Part shown: positions 3,092 to 40,936 of the stretch, piece by piece | Numbering within the stretch: position 1 is the first letter of the stretch | How the letters are laid out: each line of letters begins with the position of its first letter | Source of the DNA: Escherichia phage fDHCT2 | DNA: 64,000 nucleotides | Direction: 5' to 3' (one strand) | Sequence record: OR427838.1 | Notes under the pieces: generated by a model | What the model saw: only the letters and a program-made list of their open reading frames with translations | The model's database searches: none | What the model was told of the DNA's origin: nothing | Translations under genes and position numbers: made by a program

Positions 3092-3315
3092 AAACCTTTA
3101 AAGAAGTTATTCAAGAAGCATCTATTGAAAGCTTCATGGCTAAAATTGGTTCTTGTCAGACTATGGACGGTCTGAAGGAATTGGAAAAGTATTACAAAAC
3201 TCGTAGTAAGGAAGCCGAACTTCGTGATTCGGATGATATTAGCGTGCGTGATGCATTGGCTGGTAAGAGAGCTGAATTGGAGTCGATGGACGACGAGGAA
3301 GAGGAAGATTTCTAA
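3088..3315 (+). CDS. uvsW.1: UvsW.1 small acidic protein (75 aa)
   Basis: ATGA overlap with uvsW stop; acidic C-terminus (DDEEEEDF); T4 has a 76-aa uvsW.1 here. Confidence 0.8.
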   Translation: MKTFKEVIQEASIESFMAKIGSCQTMDGLKELEKYYKTRSKEAELRDSDDISVRDALAGKRAELESMDDEEEEDF

Positions 3316-3323
3316 ACAAAAAA

Positions 3324-3345
3324 GGCCCAACCTTTCGGAAGGGCC
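3324..3345 (-). terminator. Stem-loop with T-run on minus strand (intrinsic terminator, possibly bidirectional)
   Basis: ggcccaacctttcggaagggcc imperfect hairpin; minus strand followed by TTTTTTG; lies between convergent uvsW.1 and the minus-strand small ORFs. Confidence 0.5.
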
Positions 3346-3374
3346 AATAACCATAAATGGCTATACACACTAGA

Positions 3375-3542
3375 CTAAAGTAGTAATTGGGTTTCGTTCA
3401 GCTGTTCTTCAGTGTTTTCCGTAACAGGCAGGCTTTGAACGTAATTATAACATGAGCCCGGATGAACCGGACCTTTTTCTGTTTCAACAACCAATGCAGC
3501 ATCGATTGGAGTTTTACAGACAACGCAAATCTTATCTGACAT
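3375..3542 (-). CDS. Small Cys-containing protein (55 aa), uvsY.-2-like
   Basis: ORF below the 60-aa track cutoff, read by hand: MSDKICVVCKTPIDAALVVETEKGPVHPGSCYNY..; ATG at 3540-3542, stop 3375-3377; T4 has small ORFs at this position. Confidence 0.45.
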   Translation of the reverse strand: MSDKICVVCKTPIDAALVVETEKGPVHPGSCYNYVQSLPVTENTEEQLNETQLLL

Positions 3543-3570
3543 GATTGTCTCCTTAGTTTAACTTACATAT

Positions 3571-3669
3571 CTATTTATTACTTGATAAAGCAGTATTAAT
3601 GAATTCTTGAAGAAGTTTCATTTTATCGGCATCTACTTTAATGGGTTTGGTATTTTTAGTACGTCTCAT
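3571..3669 (-). CDS. Small basic ORF (32 aa), uvsY.-1-like
   Basis: MRRTKNTKPIKVDADKMKLLQEFINTALSSNK; ATG immediately follows the uvsY stop (TAAATG), AGGT/GAGG upstream. Confidence 0.3.
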   Translation of the reverse strand: MRRTKNTKPIKVDADKMKLLQEFINTALSSNK

Positions 3670-4104
3670 TTATTTACCTGCCTCAAATTGTCTCATCTCA
3701 TGCATGGTCTTAAGGTTAAAACCACGCGCCTTAATAGCATCAAGTGCTGAACTACAAAAGTCCTGTAATAAAGCCCAATACTGAATTGATGTGTCGATTT
3801 TAATTACACTAGAATCCGCAGCCATAACGGTCTTTAATTCAGACTTCTCATACTGGTCCATACAAACCTCATCACCAGGCTCTCCACGTCCCGTGTAGAA
3901 ATCTAATCGCTTCTTAAGTGAGGTCTTTTTCTGGATTTCTAATCTCATTATTTCTTTCTTACAATTCGTATACAGCCTTAGCCATTTGCTGTGCAGCAAA
4001 ACGTTGTTCTGTACTTCATATTGTAAACGAGTTCCATCAATCTTTAAATCCTCGTCTAATGCGTCCTGAAATGATTCTAATTTATATTCAATCTCTTTAC
4101 TCAT
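3670..4104 (-). CDS. uvsY: UvsY recombination mediator
   Basis: Start taken at internal Met (MSKEIEYK..) with AGGAAA SD; strong similarity to T4 UvsY incl. C-terminal ..DAIKARGF..EAGK. Confidence 0.9.
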   Translation of the reverse strand: MSKEIEYKLESFQDALDEDLKIDGTRLQYEVQNNVLLHSKWLRLYTNCKKEIMRLEIQKKTSLKKRLDFYTGRGEPGDEVCMDQYEKSELKTVMAADSSVIKIDTSIQYWALLQDFCSSALDAIKARGFNLKTMHEMRQFEAGK

Positions 4105-4135
4105 CGCATGTTTCCTGTGTAATAACCATAGGACC

Positions 4136-4162
4136 ATTATACACTATTCATTTGAACAGCAA
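4136..4162 (-). promoter_or_regulatory. Putative MotA-dependent middle promoter for uvsY
   Basis: Minus strand reads ..aaTTGCTGttca..(about 20 nt)..TATAAT..: MotA-box-like TGCT motif near -30 plus -10 TATAAT, about 35 nt upstream of the uvsY ATG. Confidence 0.4.
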
Positions 4163-4552
4163 TTAACCACTCTGTGAGAGCTGGATTCTAATTTGCTCTA
4201 ATGTATCCGGGTCATCAACTATACTAAACTGAACCGTCACTATAATCGAGTTATCATCATACACAGGTGTCACACCTACAGCCAGGGTAGAAATTCTGGG
4301 TTCGAAGTTCCGCACAGCGGAAACTATATTACGCTTAATGGTATCCGTGATTAGTGGAGTAATATTTTCAAACAATTGGTTACTGATGTCACAACCAAAT
4401 TCAGGCATAAAAGGGCGTGAACCTTTGCGAGTAGTAATAATGCCTAACAAACTATTTTTTACTGCACGAGCGCCTGTGGCTTTAGCGACGTCTCTATTCC
4501 AAGACGTCCTCATTTCAGGGTCTAAATCTGAATACATTTTATTGATATTCAT
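4163..4552 (-). CDS. 25: Baseplate wedge protein gp25
   Basis: 129 aa; near-identical blocks to T4 gp25 (LLGIITTRKGSRPF.PEFGCD, VRNFEPRI). Confidence 0.9.
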   Translation of the reverse strand: MNINKMYSDLDPEMRTSWNRDVAKATGARAVKNSLLGIITTRKGSRPFMPEFGCDISNQLFENITPLITDTIKRNIVSAVRNFEPRISTLAVGVTPVYDDNSIIVTVQFSIVDDPDTLEQIRIQLSQSG

Positions 4553-5175
4553 TACATCACCTTAAAGAACTCTTTAAGTCCCTCAATAACGTGGACGGTA
4601 TGTTCACCACATTCACAAGAAATAGGTATAGCCAAAATAGGCTTAGGGGCGACTAGGGCATCATAAACTTCTTTTATGTCTTTTTCTGTTATCGCAGAAT
4701 AAAGGTCATCAAGTTCCGCATCACTTAAATCGGAAAGAAAAAGCTTTTCGCCTGCAGAAGTTAAAATATAATCGATACACCCTGCGACCATCATAGCTCT
4801 ATTTTTATCTTCAAAGAGTTTAGGATATCTGAAAACAATTTTAAAGTTGCCAAAGTCTTTAATAACATCAGGCTCTTTACCTAATGTTGCGCGAGTTAGT
4901 GTCATAGGGACAACCTGTGAGCGACCACAACTACAAACCCACTCACGTTCTATATTCACTTCAGCTAATGAATGGGCCCACAGGTTTATCACCAGGAGCT
5001 CAGATTCCTGCTTGTTTAAATCACGAGCATCTGTGCAATTCGAAATGAGTTCATTGATAAAGGACTCTATTCTGCCTTCTAATTTAGCTTGGAGCAAGTC
5101 CTTATACTCTCTGAGGGTAAATGCTCTGCATTTTATGGTTTTGTTTTTAATTTTTACGTCAAAAGTATAATTCAT
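4552..5175 (-). CDS. 26: Baseplate hub subunit gp26
   Basis: 207 aa; position between 25 and 51, size as T4 gp26; late promoter and SD upstream. Confidence 0.8.
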   Translation of the reverse strand: MNYTFDVKIKNKTIKCRAFTLREYKDLLQAKLEGRIESFINELISNCTDARDLNKQESELLVINLWAHSLAEVNIEREWVCSCGRSQVVPMTLTRATLGKEPDVIKDFGNFKIVFRYPKLFEDKNRAMMVAGCIDYILTSAGEKLFLSDLSDAELDDLYSAITEKDIKEVYDALVAPKPILAIPISCECGEHTVHVIEGLKEFFKVM

Positions 5176-5193
5176 TGTCTTCTCCTTTAAGCT

Positions 5194-5201
5194 TATTTAT
5201 A
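5194..5201 (-). promoter_or_regulatory. Late promoter (minus) for 26-25
   Basis: Palindromic TATTTATAAATA: minus-strand TATAAATA about 19 nt upstream of the gp26 ATG. Confidence 0.6.
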
Positions 5202-5205
5202 AATA
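5198..5205 (+). promoter_or_regulatory. Late promoter (plus) for 51-27-28-29-48-54
   Basis: TATAAATA about 21 nt upstream of gp51 ATG, followed by SD AAGAGGA. Confidence 0.65.
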
Positions 5206-5225
5206 CATCAATAAGAGGACACCCT

Positions 5226-5978
5226 ATGGCTAATATAGTACGTTGTGAAATGCCTGATGGAGTCCACCGATTTAAACCTTTTACAGTAGCTGATTATCGT
5301 GATTTTATTTTGATTCGAAATGACATGAATAATAAATCACCTGAAGAGCAAAAACAAATTTTAGATGAGTTACTGGAAGAATACTTCGGTGAATATCCTA
5401 TGTCATGGCGCCCGTATATGTTCATTGAACTTTACACGTCATCACTCGGCAAGACAAAAATTCCTATCCGATACACTTGTAGTAAGTGTGAAAAGGATAG
5501 ACAAGTCTTATTCAATTTGAAACAGGCCAAGTTAGATAACCCTACAATTGAAGTGGCAGGCTTGAAGCTAACATTCAAATTTCCGGAAATAGAATATCAC
5601 GATAAATCTGAATTGATTTTGAACACCCTCCAAACCGTAGAAGATGAAAATGGAAAATATAATTGGACTGACCTTTCTGAAGAAGACCAATTAGCCGTAA
5701 TAGATGCTATAGACTTGTCCACTTTAGAGGATATAGTCAAACAAACAAGCCCTATTCATTTCGAACTCAAATATGGATGCTGTAATCGTAGAACAATTAC
5801 GTATACCGATATTTTAGAGGTGTTTAAGCTTATAGTCAATCCGGATGAGATATTTTTATTTTACCAAATAAACCATTTATTGGTAAAGAACAATTATTCA
5901 TTAGAAAGCATTATGCAGATGATTCCAATCGAACGCGGCATTGCTTTGTCTTTGGTTGAAAAGGACCTTAAGAAATGA
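5226..5978 (+). CDS. 51: Baseplate hub assembly protein gp51
   Basis: Start at internal ATG 5226 (SD AAGAGGAC, downstream of late promoter); 250 aa, position as T4 gene 51. Confidence 0.8.
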
Positions 5979-7144
5979 GTTCAAAAACTATGCAGCGTGA
6001 AGGCTTTCCTAATATTAGTATACGCCTTTACGAAGATTATGACGCCTGGTTAGAGCATCGTTTTGTTGAACTAGGCGCGACATTTACTACTCTAACAATG
6101 CGAGACGGGCTTTACGGTAGTAATGAAGGATTGCTCCAGTTTTATGATGCAAAAAACCTTCATACTAAAATGGATGGTGAGCAGATTATCCAAGTTTCTG
6201 TTAAGAATGCCAACTCGGAACGTACCCAATCAAGAATTTACGGAAGTAAACACTTTGCAGTAGGGGTGGATTCTAAGGGCGACAATATCATAACAATACA
6301 ACTCGCCCCTATCCACTTTTTAGAAAATCTTAAATTCGGACGTATGTTCTTCCCTAGTGTTCAAGAAACATTAACAGAAATGATTGGTGTTATTTACCAA
6401 GACCGTCCGTTACTTGCTCCTCCTTTGAACGGAATAAACGTTTACGTTCCTAATGTTCCTTGGTGTGATTCAATGGACCGTTATATGGAATTTGTACGAG
6501 AAGTAGGTATGGCTGTTGAATCTGATAAATTTGTATTTGTCTGGGAAGATATAGATGGTATTTCTATTATGGACTACGAATTTATGGTTAATCAAGAGCC
6601 AATTAATTTTGTGGTAGGTGAGCCTCGTTTAATAGGCCAATATGTTCAAGATATGGATACTCCTATCGCATTTGATTTTGAATGGTTAACTAAAGCCAAC
6701 CAGCATTCCAGAAAGCCATATGAAAACGCTACTATATACGCCCACTCTTTCTTAGACAAAAACGCCACACGAATTACTTTTGGCGATGGGCAAAACAGTA
6801 TATTGGTTTCTCGCTCTGGTGGATATTCTGATTATACCTACCGAAACGGATTTGAAGAAGCCGATAGATTAGTTACTATGGCCCAATACGACGGCTACGC
6901 GCATTGTAAGGTATACGGTAACTTTGAACTAACTCCAGGCGATAAGATTAATTTCTATGACCCTAAAAACCAATTCCAATACGATTTTTATGTAGACGAA
7001 GTTATTCATGAAGTGAGTAACAATACATCAATTACAAACCTTTATATGTTTACTAATGGTAAGCCTATTAAGATTGAAGAACCACCGAAGGTTAAAAATG
7101 AACTTAAAACTGATACTCCCGATCAAGAAAATAACGCTGGGTGA
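5975..7144 (+). CDS. 27: Baseplate hub subunit gp27
   Basis: 389 aa (T4 gp27 391 aa); ATGA overlap with gene 51 stop. Confidence 0.9.
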
Positions 7145-7625
7145 CAAAGAGATTTCCATTCCTAAATTGGGTCTTAAACACCAGAAATTGGTTAAAGATG
7201 AAAAGGACCCTTACAAGGCTCTTCACATATTAATGAATTCCATTTATAAAGATTTATCCGCGGCAGAGACTGATTTTGCCGCTCTTCACCTTTTAGAATT
7301 CAATGGAAGATTAAAAAGTAAAGTAACCAAAGACGGGTTTACTTATAACTTAAATGACCTTTATATCTGCCAACGACTTGAATTCCAATTCCAAGGTAAA
7401 ACATTTAAATTTAAATCACATGAACCATTTCAAACATTTGGACCTGTTGATAGTGTATTACAGTCCCTTTACCTTGGTGATGATGTACCAGATTTTCTGG
7501 ATATGCCTGCCTTTGTTGCTACATGGGCCGACGATATAACTTCTACTATAGCTATCCCTGGTCCTAATGGTCCTATCAAAGGATTGCTTAAAATCATGGA
7601 TATCTTAAATGAAGAACGAATCTAA
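7098..7625 (+). CDS. 28: Baseplate hub distal subunit gp28
   Basis: Internal ATG 7098 with GAAGG SD gives 175 aa (T4 gp28 177 aa); overlaps gp27 3' end by 47 nt. Confidence 0.75.
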
Positions 7626-31275: not shown

Positions 31276-32415
31276 TTAAAAATATTTCTTGTATGTCGCC
31301 ATTACTTTTTCATCGACATCATTATCAATTTGTGCTACAAGGTAAGAACTGATTTCCACTTCCTGAGGAGCCGCCTGTACAGCATCAGAGTTCAGGTATT
31401 CGCGAATCCAAGGATAAGGATGGCGGGTAGGAGCATCAGTAATAGGACATGGTAAGCCACATTGCTTCATACGAGAAACTGTCAGGTAATCTACAAAAGC
31501 ACCCATGTTCTGAGTATTTAATCCAGGGCAAGTACCATCTTTGAACAGGTGAGCTGCCCATTCTTTTTCTTGGCGGTTAACTTCCATGAAAATATCAACT
31601 GCTTCTTGTTCACACTCTTGAGCAATTTTAACCCATTCATCACCATCTGTACCAAGCTGGAGTTGACGGATAATGTACTGGGTGCCTTTAAGGTGAAGCT
31701 GTTCATCACGGGCAATGAACTTCATAATCTTAGCATTACCTTCCATGATTTCCATATTCTTATGGAAGTTAAAGGTACATGCGAAAGATACATAAAAACG
31801 AATAGCTTCCAATGCGTTGATTACATGGAGGCAGAGGTAAAGAGAACGCATTAGTTCGTATTTAGCCTGTTTTACGCCTTCGCTAAACTCGTGATATTCT
31901 TCTAAAGCATTTTGATATTTGCGAGTTTTCTCAATAACATCGTCATAATAACGACCAATGGATTCGGCCCGTTTCATGATAGCGTCATCTAACAGAATTT
32001 CATCAAATACCTTAGATGGGTCTGTATAGAGGTTACGCATGATATGGGTATATGAACGAGAGTGAATGGTTTCACTAAATGTCCATGTTGCCACCCAAGT
32101 ATCAAGGCTAGGGTCGGAAATCAAGGCTTGAAGAGCAGCAGAAGGAGCACGACCCTGGATACTATCCAGAAGTGATTGATACTTCAGGTTATTGGTAAAA
32201 ATATTTTGTTGGAATTGCGGAAGCTTATTAAACTGGGCTGCATCCATCATCAAGTTGACTTCTTCTGGACGCCAGAAAAAACTCAACTGCTTCTCACAAA
32301 GCTCTTCGAACACTTTATGACGTTGGATATCATATCGAGCAATACCCAAACCTGAACCAAAGAACATCGGTTCGGCTAAAACATCAACCGGAGTGGTATT
32401 AAAAACTGTAGACAT
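31276..32415 (-). CDS. nrdB: Ribonucleotide reductase small subunit (uninterrupted)
   Basis: 379 aa continuous ORF with di-iron/tyrosyl-radical type sequence; syntenic with T4 nrdB. Confidence 0.9.
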   Translation of the reverse strand: MSTVFNTTPVDVLAEPMFFGSGLGIARYDIQRHKVFEELCEKQLSFFWRPEEVNLMMDAAQFNKLPQFQQNIFTNNLKYQSLLDSIQGRAPSAALQALISDPSLDTWVATWTFSETIHSRSYTHIMRNLYTDPSKVFDEILLDDAIMKRAESIGRYYDDVIEKTRKYQNALEEYHEFSEGVKQAKYELMRSLYLCLHVINALEAIRFYVSFACTFNFHKNMEIMEGNAKIMKFIARDEQLHLKGTQYIIRQLQLGTDGDEWVKIAQECEQEAVDIFMEVNRQEKEWAAHLFKDGTCPGLNTQNMGAFVDYLTVSRMKQCGLPCPITDAPTRHPYPWIREYLNSDAVQAAPQEVEISSYLVAQIDNDVDEKVMATYKKYF

Positions 32416-32450
32416 GTTATTCTCATTTGTTATGGGTTTAAATTATTTTA

Positions 32451-33254
32451 TCACATATTATGTATAAGCACTTCAGTCTGGAATGACACACCTTTTGATA
32501 CTTTTTGATATCTAGTTTCAAAATATTCAATTTTGAAATTGTTAGAAAGGGCCCAATCTTTTAGAATGTTATTATCAATATCATCTGATAGATTATTAGT
32601 GATAATAAATTTAGACTTTGATCGTTTAATTTTATCTAATAATTCTAATTCATCCTTTTCTTCCCACCCCGAATATTTAAATTTAGTAGAAAGATATGGT
32701 GGATCGATAAATAAGTTCCTGTTTTCAAAATCTAAATCTCTGAATGATTTATTTGAAAAACTTAGCAGATGTTGTCGATTTTTAAAAGCGGCGAATTTAT
32801 CCTGTTGCGATTTATTAAAAGAAGTTCTAGAGTATTTAGCCCTATCCGCAAAAGAAGCTATATACTTATCATCTTTAGAAAATTTTAGCATTGAGCTGAA
32901 TGCAAATAAATGTAGAACATACAAATACAACCCGTTTTTGGTTTTATCGTATTCCTTTGCCAGAGAGTAAAACGGTTTAGGGTCCACATCATTTAAACCG
33001 AAATCATCAATAATTTGGACAACGTCATTCATTGTTGAAGTTTTCATCGCGTTGTACATATTGATGACATGATAATTAATATCATTACACTCAACTCGCC
33101 GCCCACAATTCATAGAAAATCCAAGCCCACCACAAAAGGCATCTAAAACTATGGAGTCATCAAACCCCGTCACGAATTTATTAATAAAATCCATATATTT
33201 GTATTTTGAACCCGGGTAGGTTATCGCTGAATAATATTTCATCATATTTGCCAT
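32451..33254 (-). CDS. dam: Dam-like DNA N6-adenine methyltransferase
   Basis: 267 aa; motif I LDAFCGGLG, motif IV DPPY, Dam-family blocks YPGSKY and FNKSQ; recalled similarity to T4/E. coli Dam; AT-rich gene. Confidence 0.85.
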   Translation of the reverse strand: MANMMKYYSAITYPGSKYKYMDFINKFVTGFDDSIVLDAFCGGLGFSMNCGRRVECNDINYHVINMYNAMKTSTMNDVVQIIDDFGLNDVDPKPFYSLAKEYDKTKNGLYLYVLHLFAFSSMLKFSKDDKYIASFADRAKYSRTSFNKSQQDKFAAFKNRQHLLSFSNKSFRDLDFENRNLFIDPPYLSTKFKYSGWEEKDELELLDKIKRSKSKFIITNNLSDDIDNNILKDWALSNNFKIEYFETRYQKVSKGVSFQTEVLIHNM

Positions 33255-33297
33255 TTTGTTAGTGACTCATCCATGAGTCAATTATAATCAGATTTTA

Positions 33298-35553
33298 TTA
33301 AAGCTTACAAGCTGCACAATCGTCGGCTTTAGGAGTTTCGATTTCATAATCGTCAGTACCAGAGCCATCACGGGTATTATGATAATAAAGGTTCTTACCA
33401 CCAAAGTACCAGAAATATAACAGGTCATCAAGCATTACCGACATAGGAACTTTTCCTTTCTCATAATTCTGAGGGTCGTAATACGTATTCGCTGATGCTG
33501 ATTGGCAAACCCATTTCAACATAATTGCTACTTGGGTAAGATAAGGTTTATTACCTTTCTTAGCGAGGCTCCAAGCATAATCATAGAGGCCTTGGTTATG
33601 TTCTACATTAGGAACTACCTGACGGAAGTTACCTTCTTTAGATTCTTTAATACTTACCGGACCACGCGGAGGTTCGATACCGTTGGTAGAGTTGGAAACC
33701 TGGCTGCTTGACTCGCATGGCATAAGTGCTGATAATGTGCTATTACGGATGCCATGTTTAACCAAGTCTTCCCGCAACGACGACCAGTCACAAACATAGT
33801 TTGGGGCTGCGATTTGGTCAATCTTTTTACTGTACCAGTCGATAGGAAGCTCGCCTCGAGACCATTTAGTGTCTGAATAATACTCGCAAGGTCCTTTTTC
33901 TTCGGCCAGCTTGATTGATGCTCGGATAAGTCCATACTGTAATCTCTCAAACAGTTCATGAGTTAAATCGTTTGCGTCTTCATAAGAAGCAAAGTTGCTT
34001 GCCAGCCATGCTGCGTAGTTAGTAACACCGACACCCAGGTTACGACGTTTCTTAGCCTTCAAAGCTTCAGGAACAGGATAGCTTTGATAATCTAATAGGT
34101 TATCAAGTGCACGTACCTGTACTTCAGCGAGTTCGTTGATTTTGTCTTGGTCTTGCCAATCAAAGTTATCCAACACGAATGCAGACAGCGTACACAACCC
34201 GATTTCAGCGTCCGGACTATTCACATCGGTAGTTGGGATAGCAATTTCACAGCATAGGTTACTTTGGCGAATAGGAGCCTTTTCACGAATAAATGGTGTG
34301 AAGTTATTAGTGTTATCAACGAACTGAGGATAAATTCGTGCAGTGCCTGAACGTTCAGTCATGAACAATTCAAAGAGGTCACGTGCTTTAATACGTTTCT
34401 TACGAATACTAGAGTCTTTTTCAGCCGCTTCATACAATTCACGGAAACGTTCTTGGTCTTCAAAATAAGAATAATAAAGCTCACCACCCATTTCATGAGG
34501 ACTGAACAGCGTGATGTAATCATTTTTACCGAAACGTTCCATCATAAGGTCGTTCAACTGGATTCCGTAGTCCATATGGCGAATACGGTTCTCATCGACC
34601 CCTTTGTTGTTTTTCAGAACGAGCAGATTTTCAACTTCCAAATGCCAAATAGGATAATAAGCAGTAGCAGCGCCGCCACGGATTCCACCTTGTGAACATG
34701 ATTTAACAGCAGTCTGGAAATGTTTCCAGAATGGAATAACGCCTGTATGTTTGACTTCACCCATGCCAATACGAGAACCTTCAGCACGAATCATACCAAC
34801 GTTGATACCAATACCTGCACGTTTAGAAATGTATTCAATTATTGAGTTAGCAGTTTTGTTAATAGATTTCAGTGAGTCGCCTGCTTCAATAACCACACAA
34901 GAACTAAATTGACGGGTTGGTGTACGTGCCCCAGCCATAATAGGAGTTGGTAATGAAACCTGACGGGTACTTACAGCATCATAAAAACGAATAATATGGG
35001 CTAAACGGTTCCCTGGCTCGTCTTGGTGTAAGGCCATGCCAATACACATGATAGCGAACTGAGGGGTTTCGTAGATTTTACCGGTTGTTTTATCTTTAAC
35101 CAGATATTTCTCTTTAAGCTGCATCGCCCCAGCATAAGTCAATTCGAAATCGCGTTCATGCTTAATATGAGATTCTAAGAAAGTAATTTCTTCTGCAGAG
35201 TAACGAGATAACAACTCAGGGTCATATTTACCTTCGTTAACACAATAGGAAATATGGTCAATAAAACTACGCGGTTCAAACTGGCCATAAACTTCTTTAC
35301 GCAGGGCAAACATCAATTGCTTTGCAGCAACATACTGATAATCAGGTTCTTCAACCGAAATAAGGTTAGCTGCTACCTTAACAGTCAGATTCTGGATATC
35401 TTTGGTAGTCATACCATCACGAAGGTGGGTTTTGATTTCTTCGTATAATTCATATGGGTCGATTTGGGTTCCTTCACAGCCCCAAGTCAGAACTTTAATA
35501 ATTTTTTGTGCGTCAAAATCTTGGGATACACCACTACTCTTTTGTACTTGCAT
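33298..35553 (-). CDS. nrdA: Ribonucleotide reductase large subunit
   Basis: 751 aa; active-site motifs incl. NLCCEIA and C-terminal Cys pair; syntenic with T4 nrdA. Confidence 0.95.
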   Translation of the reverse strand: MQVQKSSGVSQDFDAQKIIKVLTWGCEGTQIDPYELYEEIKTHLRDGMTTKDIQNLTVKVAANLISVEEPDYQYVAAKQLMFALRKEVYGQFEPRSFIDHISYCVNEGKYDPELLSRYSAEEITFLESHIKHERDFELTYAGAMQLKEKYLVKDKTTGKIYETPQFAIMCIGMALHQDEPGNRLAHIIRFYDAVSTRQVSLPTPIMAGARTPTRQFSSCVVIEAGDSLKSINKTANSIIEYISKRAGIGINVGMIRAEGSRIGMGEVKHTGVIPFWKHFQTAVKSCSQGGIRGGAATAYYPIWHLEVENLLVLKNNKGVDENRIRHMDYGIQLNDLMMERFGKNDYITLFSPHEMGGELYYSYFEDQERFRELYEAAEKDSSIRKKRIKARDLFELFMTERSGTARIYPQFVDNTNNFTPFIREKAPIRQSNLCCEIAIPTTDVNSPDAEIGLCTLSAFVLDNFDWQDQDKINELAEVQVRALDNLLDYQSYPVPEALKAKKRRNLGVGVTNYAAWLASNFASYEDANDLTHELFERLQYGLIRASIKLAEEKGPCEYYSDTKWSRGELPIDWYSKKIDQIAAPNYVCDWSSLREDLVKHGIRNSTLSALMPCESSSQVSNSTNGIEPPRGPVSIKESKEGNFRQVVPNVEHNQGLYDYAWSLAKKGNKPYLTQVAIMLKWVCQSASANTYYDPQNYEKGKVPMSVMLDDLLYFWYFGGKNLYYHNTRDGSGTDDYEIETPKADDCAACKL

Positions 35554-35608: not shown

Positions 35609-35974
35609 TGGACTGATATTTATAGGTCTTCTAATGAGAACGTATCTTTGAAAAGTTTGTTAACAACCAGGGCTATCACATCCCCATGACAGTCCTTAGG
35701 TTTACAGGTACACGCTATTCGCATACCTCTAAGGGTTTCAAGGTGTTCTCTTTTAATTTCACCTGATTTTATTTTAGCAATAAAGTATTCTTTAAAGTTC
35801 TTGATGTTTTCCTCACGAGTCCCATCTTTAAATGGATTACCCCACATAGTTCCACGTTGGATGTTTACATCAAAATCTTCTTTATACTTGTTAACAACTC
35901 TACAGACTCTCATTATAGCACCAAATTCAGTCCGACCATAATAACCAAAAACAGAGTACAGATTATTTGAATTT

Positions 35975-37658
<1,684 letters not shown>

Positions 37659-38988: not shown

Positions 38989-39894
38989 TTATAGACCAGC
39001 TAACAAATCGTCCAGACCGTCGTCATCAGAAGGACTTACTGACGGCTCAGGAGTAGTGGAACGAGCAGGTGTAGACGGTTTGGAATCATACGCATCAAGG
39101 TCTGCACTGAATGCGTCCAGGTCATCACCAATCTTATCAGCGGCTGCAGAAGCTTTAGCGGCAGCACCACCAAGAGCAGCTGTACCAACAACTTTCTTAA
39201 ACTTGGCTTCGTTAGTTTCGAATGATTTGAAATCGAGCAGTTTAGAAAGGTCGTGCATTTCTTCCATCAATTTAGCTTGGTAAGCTTCGTCATTGATGTT
39301 AGGAATTTCAGACTGACCCATGAATTTGGAATCGTCGTAGTTTTTGAAGTCGCCAACTTTCTTAGATTTCAGTACGAAGTTCGCACCATCAAATGGACAT
39401 GTTACGTCAACCGGCACTTCACCAATATCAGTATCAACTTCAACCATCTGGTTGATTTTATCCATAATTTTCTGACCGAAACGGAATTTAAACACTTTAC
39501 CTTCGTTAGCAGGCACTGCACTATCCTTAATAACAAGGATGTTAGCCCAGAAGGAAGTTTTACGTTTCATCAGTTTGTATTCGGCATTATTAGTATTATA
39601 CGTATCGTTCTGGTTCATGTATTTACATACAGGACATGAATCGAAATCACCGTGTGTAGACGTACAGTTTTCAATGTACCATTGACCATTTTTCTTGAAG
39701 CCGTGGTTAACGAGCTTAATGAATGGAGATGGATTTTCTTCGTTTTTCGAAGGTAGGAAACGAATTACCGCAGTACCAACACCGTTGTCATCTTTCAATT
39801 TCCATTCAGCTTTATCATCGGAAGAGAAAGAAGAACCACCTTTCATTGCAGACAGTTGAGCAGCCAGTTGAGCAGGGTCACGACGTTTAAACAT
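38989..39894 (-). CDS. 32: Single-stranded DNA-binding protein gp32
   Basis: 301 aa; extensive similarity to recalled T4 gp32 ([32 protein letters not shown], acidic C-terminus ..DDLL). Confidence 0.95.
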
Positions 39895-39983
39895 ATTATT
39901 TACCTTAGCAGATTTATCAGTTGTATTTTATTGACAGTTTTTAACAGATTGAGTTAGTATATTAACACAGTTGATTTGAAGCA

Positions 39984-40637
39984 TTAAAACTTGCAAGATT
40001 TGATAGTTTCAATGAACAATTTACGAGCTTCTAAATTATCGATTATAAGAATTTTCTTATAAGCATTTAATTTAGTCGAATACTTAGACCACACTAAATC
40101 GTTGGTCTGTTCATCATGTTTATTTATTATATCCATAAATGAATCAAGCAAAATAAACGTTTCGAACGAAATAACATTCGATTGAAGGAGCTTAAAAATA
40201 TAGCTCGAGTTAACTTTTTTATTATACTCAAAAATTTCAGAAAGCGCTTGAACTTCCACTTTCTTACTAAAATAATAAATGTTTTTGATATCATCCTCAA
40301 AAACTTGTTTTATTCTTTTAAGTCTACCGATATATTCTCGGTAAAAGACTAAGGCGTCAGCATCACTGATGTCGCCAATCCATGCGTCTTGGTTAGCCAC
40401 CAAGTTACTCATGAAGATAAGAGCAAGCTCTTTCAAAGTGTATTTATCACTCAATTTCTCGAAGAAATATTTGTCACGACGTTTTTGGTAAGCCGTATCA
40501 GAGATTCGCATGACCCAGTTATATTTTATAACGTCGTATTTGGCGTTGAAGTGATGTTTGAGCATTAAGTATAGTGAATATACGCTCTTACCATTCACCA
40601 TACGATTATTGTTTGGTGGCATGCGAATCTTAATCAT
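39984..40637 (-). CDS. 59: Helicase loader gp59
   Basis: 217 aa; near-identical blocks to T4 gp59 (KYDVIKYNW.MR.SD.AYQKRRDKYFF, LVANQDAWIGDISDADALVFYREYIGRLK). Confidence 0.92.
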   Translation of the reverse strand: MIKIRMPPNNNRMVNGKSVYSLYLMLKHHFNAKYDVIKYNWVMRISDTAYQKRRDKYFFEKLSDKYTLKELALIFMSNLVANQDAWIGDISDADALVFYREYIGRLKRIKQVFEDDIKNIYYFSKKVEVQALSEIFEYNKKVNSSYIFKLLQSNVISFETFILLDSFMDIINKHDEQTNDLVWSKYSTKLNAYKKILIIDNLEARKLFIETIKSCKF

Positions 40638-40936
40638 AACAAGAAATCCAAGGTATTAGTTTTTTGCGTTCGTGCCATTGAAGGACGAAGCAAGTTATCA
40701 TCAATGGCTTCGTTCATAATTTTATCAATAATTCCTGCAGGCAAATAACGAGCAAAGTTACCTTCAGGGATGCTGTTCTCTTCCAACCATGCGGTAGCCG
40801 CTTCGAGGTAACTACAACCTTCAGCCTCAACAAAGGCCTCAATATCAAGGCCATTCTGTTGTTTATTTACCAATACATGGACAGGTTCAGAAGCGGTATT
40901 AACCGCTCCATCAAAATCATTCAAAGATTGTGTCAT
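40634..40936 (-). CDS. 33: Late transcription co-activator gp33
   Basis: 100 aa; C-terminal clamp-binding type tail ..LDFLL; syntenic. Confidence 0.8.
   Translation of the reverse strand: MTQSLNDFDGAVNTASEPVHVLVNKQQNGLDIEAFVEAEGCSYLEAATAWLEENSIPEGNFARYLPAGIIDKIMNEAIDDNLLRPSMARTQKTNTLDFLL

Follow-up and report, generated by a model that had tools for sequence, protein, structure and literature searches.

A divergent Dam-like adenine methyltransferase gene inserted between nrdA and nrdB in Escherichia phage fDHCT2

The two ribonucleotide reductase genes of Escherichia phage fDHCT2 are separated by a gene for a putative adenine methyltransferase, and the question is whether this gene is a relocated dam, a separately acquired gene or an old resident of the gap, and whether it can still work there. 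We analysed a window of 64,000 nt of this JS98-like Dhakavirus (record OR427838.1), to which all positions refer. In the ORF map, the methylase ORF (32451-33254) lies, as the original prediction had it, between nrdA (large subunit, 33298-35553, 92-100% identical to JS98 nrdA) and nrdB (small subunit, 31276-32415), and all three genes are on the minus strand.

The ORF encodes 267 aa and contains all the motifs quoted earlier for an adenine methyltransferase (LDAFCGGLG, DPPY, FNKSQ and YPGSKY). Precisely, YPGSKY corresponds to residues 13-18, FCGGLG to residues 40-45 (33120-33137, minus strand), FNKSQ to residues 146-150 and DPPY to residues 184-187 (32694-32705, minus strand), so that motif I (FxGxG) precedes the recognition domain and motif IV (DPPY) follows it, as in the alpha class. 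The match to Pfam PF02086 reaches 71.8 bits (E=9.8e-20; cut-off 22 bits) and covers the full domain, residues 13-249 being aligned to profile positions 1-251 of 253, and PHROG 56 "DNA methyltransferase" is matched with E=2e-28. The core residues G38 of FxGxG and D180 and P182 of DPPY are invariant in an alignment of 59 sequences, and the remaining DPPY residues are nearly invariant. By sequence, the top PDB match is T4 Dam (E=5e-29), collinear over T4 Dam residues 3-235. The AlphaFold2 model (predicted, pLDDT 90.7) has its best solved counterpart in the same protein, with Foldseek TM scores of 0.85-0.86 (0.85 to 1yf3), and scores of 0.72-0.76 to EcoDam and DpnM place it in the Dam fold. By identity and predicted fold, the ORF is an intact, divergent D12 methylase (N6-adenine, Dam-like, alpha-class).

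JS98 has a gap of only 52 bp between nrdA and nrdB, as have all the other Dhakavirus records (about 50 at the Dhakavirus level, with the methylase in none). Since the sequence of this gap resumes exactly across both sides of the gene, we could delimit an 829-bp insert (32426-33254, minus strand) consisting of the methylase ORF and a 25-bp 3′ tail. This gene-order comparison bears out the earlier view that the gene is an insertion when set against its close relatives. A 7-bp direct repeat marks the two borders of the insert (TAACAAA at 33255-33261 and at 32426-32432); in relatives it corresponds to about 20 bp of the nrdB ribosome-binding region, present in duplicate. Junctions were compared among the window, JS98, CF-SP2, BGP, 236, NR1, L008-L010 and L029. 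The 3′ tail TAAAATAATTTAAACCC and, next to it, the nrdB ribosome-binding region ATAACAAATGAGAATAAC (together 32416-32450, minus strand) are conserved, being kept in 10 of the 10 other copies compared, in every carrier and every genus.

Within the insert, only the methylase has a family match; a 145-aa antisense ORF matches no family, and no HNH or GIY-YIG nuclease of the homing-endonuclease type was found in it. Likewise, the genes next to the methylase in the window, CF-SP2, NR1, L009 and L010 include no nuclease. Judged by gene content, the methylase is an orphan, the gene for a partner nuclease being absent. The gap itself is a known insertion hotspot, as had been proposed, and in T4 it is occupied by mobE (PMC2790892). 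What had been stated of T4 also proved accurate: its gap holds mobE and nrdB.1, and dam lies between genes 56 and 61. Codon 42 of nrdB in the window (32290-32292) is AAG, reportedly the form of phages without mobE and nicked by MobE (PMC2790892).

[quoted passage not shown] The carriers are CF-SP2 (Gelderlandvirus), PhiKpNIH-6 (Marfavirus), BGP, 236Ecol005PP and NR1 (Tequatrovirus), T4_ev240, and EP02SG and ECO07P2, these last two being listed without genus. In metagenomic contigs the gene is confined to the same site. A short empty gap is the majority state, since 607 of 954 records cover the JS98 junction. In a set of 1.84 billion representatives, the family makes up one 50%-identity cluster, and the relatives nearest to it reach about 35% identity at most; a word-indexed protein search with the methylase returned only four clusters, and an exhaustive HMMER search found nothing intermediate between the family and the rest of the D12 methylases. 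A scan of IMG/VR with the conserved nrdB start ATGTCTACAGTTTTTAA gave 15 loci, corresponding to five empty-gap Dhakaviruses plus chance matches, and no new carriers. The family is under purifying selection, with dN/dS of 0.07-0.18 (0.07 between the window and CF-SP2) and dS up to 2.4.

The methylase gene is more AT-rich than its neighbours, as noticed before: its GC content is 31.1%, against 41.4% in nrdA, 40.6% in nrdB and 39.7% in the window, and the lowest-GC stretches of 804 bp across the whole 64 kb all overlap it. The second-lowest patch of the window (about 39550-40750) is merely genes 32 and 59. Flanking sequences and gene have different histories in several carriers. Between about 34960 and about 31600, CF-SP2 matches the window with 90-100% identity, and outside this tract the identity is 54-80%. 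In a metagenomic phage (L029) the flanks are about 80% identical to the window, the promoter-hairpin region is 98% identical to JS98 and the methylase is 92-95% identical to that of the window. BGP has a window-type methylase gene within Tequatrovirus flanks. Presence is patchy, at a single site and with co-converted flanks, and the mosaic tracts in CF-SP2 and the metagenomic phage suggest that the cassette spread by recombination through the conserved nrd flanks. On these comparisons of sequence, the methylase gene of the window is a horizontal acquisition.

One competing reading is that the gene already occupied the nrdA-nrdB gap in the ancestor of T4-like phages, was deleted through the direct repeats in most lineages and was retained in the window phage. 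The site is in fact identical in every genus, and recombination across the duplicated nrdB ribosome-binding region of the relatives would restore exactly the 52-bp gap of JS98. Moreover, the family consists of three subtypes whose mutual dS (1.2-2.4) is saturated and about matches that of the nrd flanks between genera, so family-wide gain and repeated loss cannot be told apart from these values. Nevertheless, the gap is short and empty in the majority of records and in all other Dhakavirus records, and gene tree and flanks disagree (a window-type gene is combined with Tequatrovirus flanks in BGP and L010; L029 and CF-SP2 are mosaic). The methylase copies of all carriers have 26-31% GC, under the GC content of every host genome, and 2 of the 12 GATC sites of the window are inside the insert, which is therefore not adapted to the GATC avoidance of this genome. 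The empty gaps of JS98, T2, ATK47, TH40 and Roth04 contain no cassette-type remnant (the TTTAAACC tail). We consider retention from an ancestor improbable.

Taken as a whole, the reading we consider highly probable is that of an intact orphan D12 methylase on an 829-bp single-gene cassette moving by recombination in the nrd flanks. On its upstream side the cassette would have the nrdB promoter and hairpin, where nrdA ends, and on its downstream side the ribosome-binding site of nrdB. It has no mobility gene of its own and represents a single-site family in T4-like phages. Co-infecting phages would exchange it through homologous recombination, with nrdA presumably as the upstream and nrdB as the downstream conserved flank; breaks made by homing endonucleases of the neighbourhood may stimulate the exchange, and the flanking direct repeats could recombine, with loss of the cassette. 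Its predicted product would most likely methylate adenines of the phage DNA in GATC or some similar short sequence, which might protect the DNA from some host nucleases. On this reading, the locus is a base-resolved case of T4-like phages trading single accessory genes via conserved metabolic-gene flanks. The nrdA-nrdB gap has at least two alternative occupants, mobE and the methylase. Current understanding is not overturned by these findings.

The target site was considered through the recognition hairpin. In EcoDam, the beta-hairpin residues reading GATC are Y119, N120, L122, R124 and P134, and the Arg at the position where the window protein has K reads the G:C pair (PMC4417163). In the alignment made here, the methylase positions equivalent to Y119, N120 and L122 are F119, S120 and M122 (M or L), the same F/S/M as in T4 Dam. 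At the position of EcoDam R124 (T4 Dam R116) there is K in the window type and R in the Tequatrovirus and Klebsiella types, and at that of EcoDam P134 (T4 Dam P126) the cassette methylases have S or A. The T4 Dam equivalents are presumably F111, S112, M114, R116 and P126, a numbering based on the alignment and on Horton et al. 2005. The loop of the hairpin has a 6-residue insertion relative to both T4 Dam and EcoDam. Because the hairpin differs from those of both enzymes, GATC specificity is uncertain, and it is less sure than the original prediction assumed. GATC is nearly absent from the window, with an observed/expected ratio of 0.06 (~16-fold depletion), and a GATC methylase would find few substrates there.

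Initiation of translation was also considered. The in-frame ATGs of the methylase are at 33254, 33245 and 33242, and by homology the start is likely the third (MKYY..., 263 aa). None of the three is preceded by a Shine-Dalgarno sequence, as had been stated, but this does not characterise the gene in general, since GAGG, GGAG or GAGA precedes it in nine homologous copies. Aligning the 5′ junctions reveals a degenerate translation-initiation region in the window, CTAACAAAATGGCAAATATGATG (33240-33262, minus strand), where relatives have the Shine-Dalgarno sequences CAAATGAGGAGTAATATG and CAAATGAGAATGCTATG. Owing to this loss, expression of the methylase in fDHCT2 is probably weak. Initiation can still take place from A/U-rich leaders.

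From here one could regard the gene as a decaying passenger, co-converted with the nrd flanks, with almost no GATC targets, deprived of its ribosome-binding site and effectively silent. The loss of the Shine-Dalgarno sequence in the window lineage only, the scarcity of GATC and K where EcoDam reads the G:C pair with Arg would all fit. We give this little chance, because the ORF has stayed intact over 263-267 codons of AT-rich sequence, dN/dS against CF-SP2 is as low as 0.07, K is likewise present in every "type 1" copy with a good Shine-Dalgarno sequence, and A/U-rich leaders could still support initiation.

Upstream of the methylase there is now the predicted nrdB promoter region (33281-33306, minus strand). 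As read from the sequence, a MotA-box-like AAGCTTTA (33299-33306) overlaps the nrdA stop codon; downstream, 12 nt separate it from the -10 element TATAAT (33281-33286), which is invariant in 11 spacer variants. The best sigma-70-like match of the region is TTGTAA-18-TATAAT (33310..33281). An nrdB promoter at the nrdA stop agrees with the published arrangement (PMC2790892). Transcription of the methylase would start from this predicted promoter and, since the cassette lies between the promoter and the ribosome-binding site of nrdB, the gene most likely opens the nrdB message as its first cistron and is also carried on nrdA read-through.

Directly after the predicted -10, 8 nt upstream of the first methylase ATG, there is a perfect inverted repeat, TGACTCAT-GG-ATGAGTCA (33263-33280, minus strand; CC on the plus strand), one base off the position given previously (about 33264-33281). 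As RNA it would fold into a 7-bp stem with a UGGA loop (-8 kcal/mol, z = -2.2). Perfect 8+8 repeats with loops of 0-6 nt are not rare by chance (23 in the window versus about 11 in shuffles), hence the reality of this one rests on conservation and covariation and not on statistics. The repeat is identical in the 52-bp gap of JS98, where the methylase is absent, and across 11 variants from several genera compensatory changes affect 4 of 6 pairs; among 500 shuffles, none reached the covariation score or the paired fraction, and 1 had as many pairs with changes on both sides. By these comparisons, the hairpin is an ancestral element of the nrdA-nrdB spacer, in the nrdB promoter region and outside the cassette. 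The original prediction was right about a perfect repeat, but its assignment to the methylase as an operator or hairpin did not hold; the corrected reading assigns the repeat, as a conserved feature, to the nrdB promoter region, and its hairpin may have an undescribed function in regulation or processing in the T4-like nrd operon.

A methylase operator or RNA switch, or a cassette belonging to a restriction-modification or homing-endonuclease unit, is very unlikely: the repeat does lie 8 nt from the first ATG and homing endonuclease genes are common nearby in relatives, but the repeat occurs and covaries without the methylase, the insert has no second gene and no nuclease adjoins the methylase in the five sequences named above. 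Two other candidates in this region were rejected. An upstream ORF from the ATG in the hairpin loop (10 codons, its TGA overlapping the second methylase ATG), possibly coupled to the methylase, was judged weak, as it has no Shine-Dalgarno sequence, lies inside the stem-loop and is not conserved (early stop in T2). A terminator-like match inside the methylase ORF (33153-33168) is at chance level (1 found versus 0.6 expected).

With T4 Dam (M.EcoT4Dam; PDB 1q0s, 1yf3, 1yfj, 1yfl), the window protein shares the N-terminal Y-x-G-x-K loop, FxGxG, a central beta-hairpin module and a C-terminal DPPY, and both are orphan methylases of T4-like phages. It differs in identity (about 31% with T4 Dam and 33% with canonical Dam from Dhakavirus MX01), in locus (nrdA-nrdB and not 56-61), in having K or R at R116, S or A for P126 and six extra hairpin residues, and in its score for the Dam subfamily. 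In fact, against a cut-off of 114.85 bits for NCBIfam TIGR00571, the window protein scores 67.6, P0002 93.1 and P0003 87.4 bits, all below it, while T4 Dam and MX01 Dam reach 239.5 and 200.8; with the EcoDam equivalog model NF008152, it scores 22.8 bits versus a cut-off of 441. By position and identity (31-33%) it does not qualify as an ortholog of T4 dam, and tblastn found no second Dam-like gene in the 64-kb window, the canonical 56-61 locus lying outside it. On sequence grounds, the methylase represents a separate paralogous lineage and not a canonical dam that moved. Between "relocated" and "separately acquired", which had been left side by side, the identity and the TIGR00571 score speak against the first, and the insert relative to JS98 for the second. 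That the gene is a canonical T4-type dam translocated from 56-61 is scarcely credible given these values and the tblastn matches in two places in BGP, the second possibly a canonical dam, even if T4 Dam is the closest solved structure and JS98 has no dam at that locus.

The score below the Dam subfamily threshold, together with the altered and lengthened recognition hairpin, makes a target other than GATC possible. More tentatively, and with some doubt, such a family target may be combined with the role of a portable anti-restriction module competing with mobE for the nrdA-nrdB gap; if a non-GATC target is true, a GATC-purged phage would have gained protection for a different site. A methylase subfamily of such uncertain specificity is relevant to phage therapy and methylome work.

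The GATC methylases EcoDam and DpnM resemble the window protein in fold and catalytic DPPY, but are only 15-17% identical to it, and the window gene is phage-borne, with no known regulatory role. T4 mobE shares with the cassette the gap, the reliance on the nrd transcription unit, a patchy occurrence in T-even phages and inheritance with the nrd flanks; however, its own HNH nuclease nicks nrdB and drives inheritance (PMC2790892), whereas the methylase cassette is nuclease-free and passive or hitch-hiking. In addition, the T4 nrdB promoter is inside mobE, while the cassette is downstream of its nrdB promoter. Phage morons, genes of T4-like hyperplastic regions and orphan anti-restriction methylases are similar in consisting of one AT-rich gene between conserved genes, horizontally exchanged and likely protective. 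The cassette differs from them in having no promoter or terminator of its own, probably borrowing the nrdB promoter, and in its strictly single site. Most relatives being without it, the cassette is dispensable.

We found nothing specific in the literature on this cassette, on Dhakavirus methylases or on GATC avoidance in JS98-like phages, and no mention of phage fDHCT2 in papers. The exact methylase protein was not found in the assembly index; in a cluster listing, an identical protein is UniRef100_A0AB38Z2D4 (phage fDHCT2). The gene is of an ordinary phage accessory type, and its annotation in public databases pre-existed this analysis. Automated pipelines label the cassette methylase "Dam" or leave it as hypothetical.

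The gene between nrdA and nrdB is a real, intact, horizontally acquired and divergent Dam-like orphan methylase, carried on a site-restricted single-gene cassette. The window comes from a T4-like phage (genus Dhakavirus), and its segment 31000-35800 is ~96% identical to JS98, JS10, dhaeg and CLB_P2. Here the order of the genes on the minus strand is td, a DUF4326 gene, nrdA (33298-35553), the methylase ORF (32451-33254), nrdB (31276-32415), denA, rnlA and alc. All the motifs on which the original prediction of an adenine methyltransferase was founded were found, and the product matched Pfam PF02086 (D12-class N6-adenine DNA methyltransferases) over the whole domain with 71.8 bits (cut-off 22), as well as PHROG 56, "DNA methyltransferase". 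The best solved structure by sequence was T4 Dam (E=5e-29, ~31% identity), and the AlphaFold2 model of the window protein (pLDDT 90.7) gave TM values of 0.85-0.86 on T4 Dam and of 0.72-0.76 on EcoDam and DpnM. The gene is also, as predicted, more AT-rich than its neighbours, its GC content being 31.1% against 41.4% in nrdA, 40.6% in nrdB and 39.7% in the window; the 804-bp stretches with minimum GC in all 64 kb are those overlapping it.

The DUF4326 gene between td and nrdA (35620-36039, minus strand; 139 aa, Pfam E=2e-21) shares 65 nt with the 3' end of td and is annotated as "nrdA.1" in JS98. The td-nrdA slot is variable among relatives, with GIY-YIG endonucleases or small ORFs in CF-SP2 and in the metagenomic contigs L008 and L009.

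The junctions were defined by comparison with JS98, in which the gap from the nrdA stop to the nrdB start is 52 bp long (TAATAAATCTGATTATAATTGACTCATGGATGAGTCACTAACAAATGAGAATAACATG). The window copy of this gap is broken after CACTAACAAA by 829 bp (32426-33254) and then continues with TGAGAATAACATG, hence the JS98 sequence runs on exactly either side of the insert, as expected for the insertion that had been proposed. In the window a 7-bp TAACAAA is present at each insert end. The other carriers have a longer repeat, which corresponds to the nrdB ribosome-binding region (~20 bp, TAAyAAATGAGrAnTAAyATG), with one copy ahead of the methylase and one ahead of nrdB; given this duplication, we considered as the cassette the ORF plus its conserved 3' tail (TAAAATAATTTAAACC). 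The insert contained no further gene, a 145-aa antisense ORF being without any family match.

We considered as carriers the records of the phage collection with a homologue of at least 70% protein identity. They were only 8: CF-SP2 (Gelderlandvirus; 93% nucleotide and 95% amino-acid identity), vB_Eco_BGP (Tequatrovirus; 89% and 93%, respectively), 236Ecol005PP, EP02SG, T4_ev240, ECO07P2 and vB_Eco_NR1 (78%; 236Ecol005PP and NR1 are classed as Tequatrovirus) and PhiKpNIH-6 (Marfavirus; 71%). The nrdA-nrdB junction was found in ~950 records, in 607 of which the short empty configuration was in one piece; T4 and some others have instead mobE, a homing-endonuclease gene, in agreement with the description of this gap as a known insertion hotspot. 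The methylase lies between nrdA and nrdB in every carrier, including the metagenomic contigs L008, L009, L010, L029 and L030. When 1.84 billion cluster representatives were searched exhaustively with HMMER, the whole family was one 50%-identity cluster, beyond which the next matches had at most ~35% identity (E ~1e-21); the nearest named outside relative was a Pseudomonas phage methylase.

A relocated dam, as originally suggested, does not agree with the protein comparisons. The window protein shares 31% identity with T4 Dam and 33% with the Dam of the Dhakavirus MX01, and it scored 67.6 bits with NCBIfam TIGR00571 (Dam family, cut-off 114.85 bits), against 239.5 bits for T4 Dam and 200.8 for MX01 Dam; a Tequatrovirus-type relative (P0002) and a Klebsiella-type one (P0003) scored 93.1 and 87.4 bits, respectively. 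These values indicate that the nrdA-nrdB methylase is a separate, divergent D12-class lineage. In T4 the dam locus is between genes 56 and 61, where canonical dam is present in MX01 (L038) and absent in JS98 (L007, 12500-18500; 290-bp gap); it is thus itself polymorphic within Dhakavirus. In BGP, tblastn gave another match at a second place in the genome, possibly a canonical dam. A survey preprint lists methyltransferases for several other phage clusters, and not for the Dhakavirus cluster with dhaeg. UniRef contains a protein identical to that of the window, UniRef100_A0AB38Z2D4 ("site-specific DNA-methyltransferase (adenine-specific)", Escherichia phage fDHCT2), therefore the gene was already annotated, and this kind of element is well known; a literature search on the fDHCT2 methylase found no paper. 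The novelty is modest and threefold: an isolated family that scores under the Dam threshold, its strict confinement to a single hotspot, where it is an alternative occupant to mobE, and a specificity that may not be for GATC.

Pairwise dN/dS among 10 copies was 0.07-0.18, with dS from 0.03 to saturation, which implies long-term purifying selection on the protein. The GC content of all copies (26-31%) is under that of every host genome. CF-SP2 matches the window at 90-100% identity from ~34960 (mid-nrdA) to ~31600 (late nrdB) and at 54-80% outside. This Dhakavirus-like tract of ~3.3 kb (3249-7528 of the CF-SP2 locus, L002) covers the methylase together with two-thirds of nrdA (its 3' part) and most of nrdB, and the identity profile indicates that it moved, with its cassette, between a Salmonella phage and a Dhakavirus-like one. 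The transferred tract of L029 is short (~0.9 kb): its methylase shares 92-95% identity with the window and its promoter-hairpin segment 98% with JS98, against ~80% identity to the window in the nrd flanks. BGP and L010 have the window-type gene in Tequatrovirus flanks; 236Ecol005PP, NR1 and ev240 have another subtype. Such mosaic patterns are those that homologous recombination through conserved flanks would produce. The cassette tracts resemble the co-conversion tracts, up to ~2 kb, of mobE and other T4 homing endonucleases (PMC2790892). As the cassette is without a nuclease, endonuclease stimulation of its transfer, if any, would be in trans. Carriers often have homing-endonuclease insertions 1-3 kb from the cassette, splitting nrdA (236Ecol005PP), nrdB (BGP) or td (CF-SP2, L029); in L008 an endonuclease gene lies beside nrdA. 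In the window, nrdB codon 42 is AAG, the form reported for mobE-lacking phages nicked by MobE (PMC2790892), from which we predict that a mobE+ phage could replace the cassette.

An ancient presence of the cassette, followed by repeated loss, may have occurred in the family as a whole, though it seems the less probable history; the flanking repeats would permit precise deletion. For the lineage of the window acquisition appears the better reading than retention, because the other Dhakaviruses are all empty, the insert is compositionally foreign and two of the 12 GATC sites of the window are inside it.

The inverted repeat ahead of the methylase (TGACTCAT-GG-ATGAGTCA, 33263-33280) had been regarded as a possible operator or RNA hairpin of this gene. 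However, JS98 has it without any change in its empty 52-bp gap, and the 43 bp directly ahead of the methylase ATG recur with 100% identity in methylase-free Dhakavirus records, of which there are dozens. Methylase-free spacers were also compared from T2 (Tequatrovirus), ATK47 (Mosigvirus), TH40 and CJ20 (Gaprivervirus) and the Klebsiella phages Roth04 and Lion_ER11: in all of them TATAAT is followed within 1-3 nt by a stem-loop whose loop contains YGGA, with compensatory stem differences (GACTC/GAGTC, GGCTC/GAGCC, GCTCAT/ATGAGC, GACCA/TGGTT). In an alignment of 11 variants, a small sample assembled by hand, 4 of 6 pairs were changed on both sides, a count reached by one of 500 shuffles; none of the 500 reached the observed covariation score or paired fraction, the latter being 86% in the true register and 20-38% in slid ones. 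Given such a sample, we considered the covariation as supportive, not conclusive. The RNA fold of the element has -8 kcal/mol (z = -2.2); perfect 8+8 repeats are 23 in the window against ~11 in shuffles, and such a repeat alone is unremarkable. The hairpin right after TATAAT at the nrdA end is kept in at least 7 T4-like lineages, insert or not (window 33263-33306; locus L001, 2917-2968; loci L031-L036). An intrinsic terminator was rejected, there being no U-tract.

Directly upstream of the repeat, AAGCTTTA (33299-33306, minus strand), which overlaps the nrdA stop codon, is followed after 12 nt by TATAAT (33281-33286, minus strand), a layout that we take to be that of a T4 MotA-dependent middle promoter; the same stretch is the top sigma-70-like match of the region. 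Together with the hairpin, this layout marks the predicted nrdB middle-promoter region. The presence of the repeat in methylase-free phages, its compensatory stems and the adjoining promoter point to an ancestral element of the nrdB promoter region and not to a part of the cassette. The methylase, inserted downstream of it, presumably borrows the nrdB promoter. From the ATG in the loop of the hairpin a frame of 10 codons can be read (MDESLTKWQI, 33272-33240), and its TGA overlaps with the second ATG of the methylase (ATGA). In JS98 the loop ATG lies in the nrdB reading frame, and one metagenomic gene call (P0177) takes it as its start. The frame, without Shine-Dalgarno and not kept in T2, is probably meaningless.

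The lack of a Shine-Dalgarno sequence, claimed for the methylase, is true in the window (CAAAATGGCAAATATGATG) but not as a general property of the gene, since the relatives keep a purine tract: the upstream sequence is CAAATGAGGAGTAATATG in CF-SP2 and L010, CAAATGAGAAATAATATG in BGP, CAAATGAGAATGCTATG in L029, CGAGAAATAA(A/T)ATG in the Tequatrovirus subtype and TTTGGAG(T/A)TATTATG in the Klebsiella subtype. The window has lost this tract and gained two extra in-frame ATGs, the homologous start being probably the third ATG (33242); the absence is therefore a lineage-specific lesion, and it suggests weak translation of the methylase in fDHCT2.

EcoDam reads GATC by a beta-hairpin with Y119, N120, L122, R124 and P134, R124 being the main discriminator (PMC4417163). 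By alignment, the counterparts in T4 Dam are F111, S112, M114, R116 and P126, whereas the window protein has F119, S120, M122, K124 and S134, i.e. neither the Arg nor the Pro of these enzymes, and a loop six residues longer. In the Tequatrovirus and Klebsiella subtypes the discriminator position is Arg, and Ala stands in place of Pro. Judging from these residues, GATC or a related GAT-containing target is plausible for the window methylase, with about an even chance for GATC itself.

No other tetranucleotide of the window is nearly as depleted as GATC, which has 12 sites (7121, 9595, 13334, 13613, 25481, 25915, 29523, 32620, 32702, 38219, 43161 and 58436) against 194 expected by a Markov model or 229 by base composition (O/E 0.06), the other 4-nt palindromes having O/E 0.6-1.04. 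The same depletion was found in JS98 fragments, with values of ~0.3 in Tequatrovirus (T4-type) fragments and ~0.6-0.8 in PhiKpNIH-6; a literature search on GATC depletion in such phages found no paper. A GATC methylase would thus have only ~30 sites in the fDHCT2 genome, a scarcity that fits either a marginal benefit of the methylase or another target, the former being in line with how rare the cassette is and with the lost ribosome-binding site.
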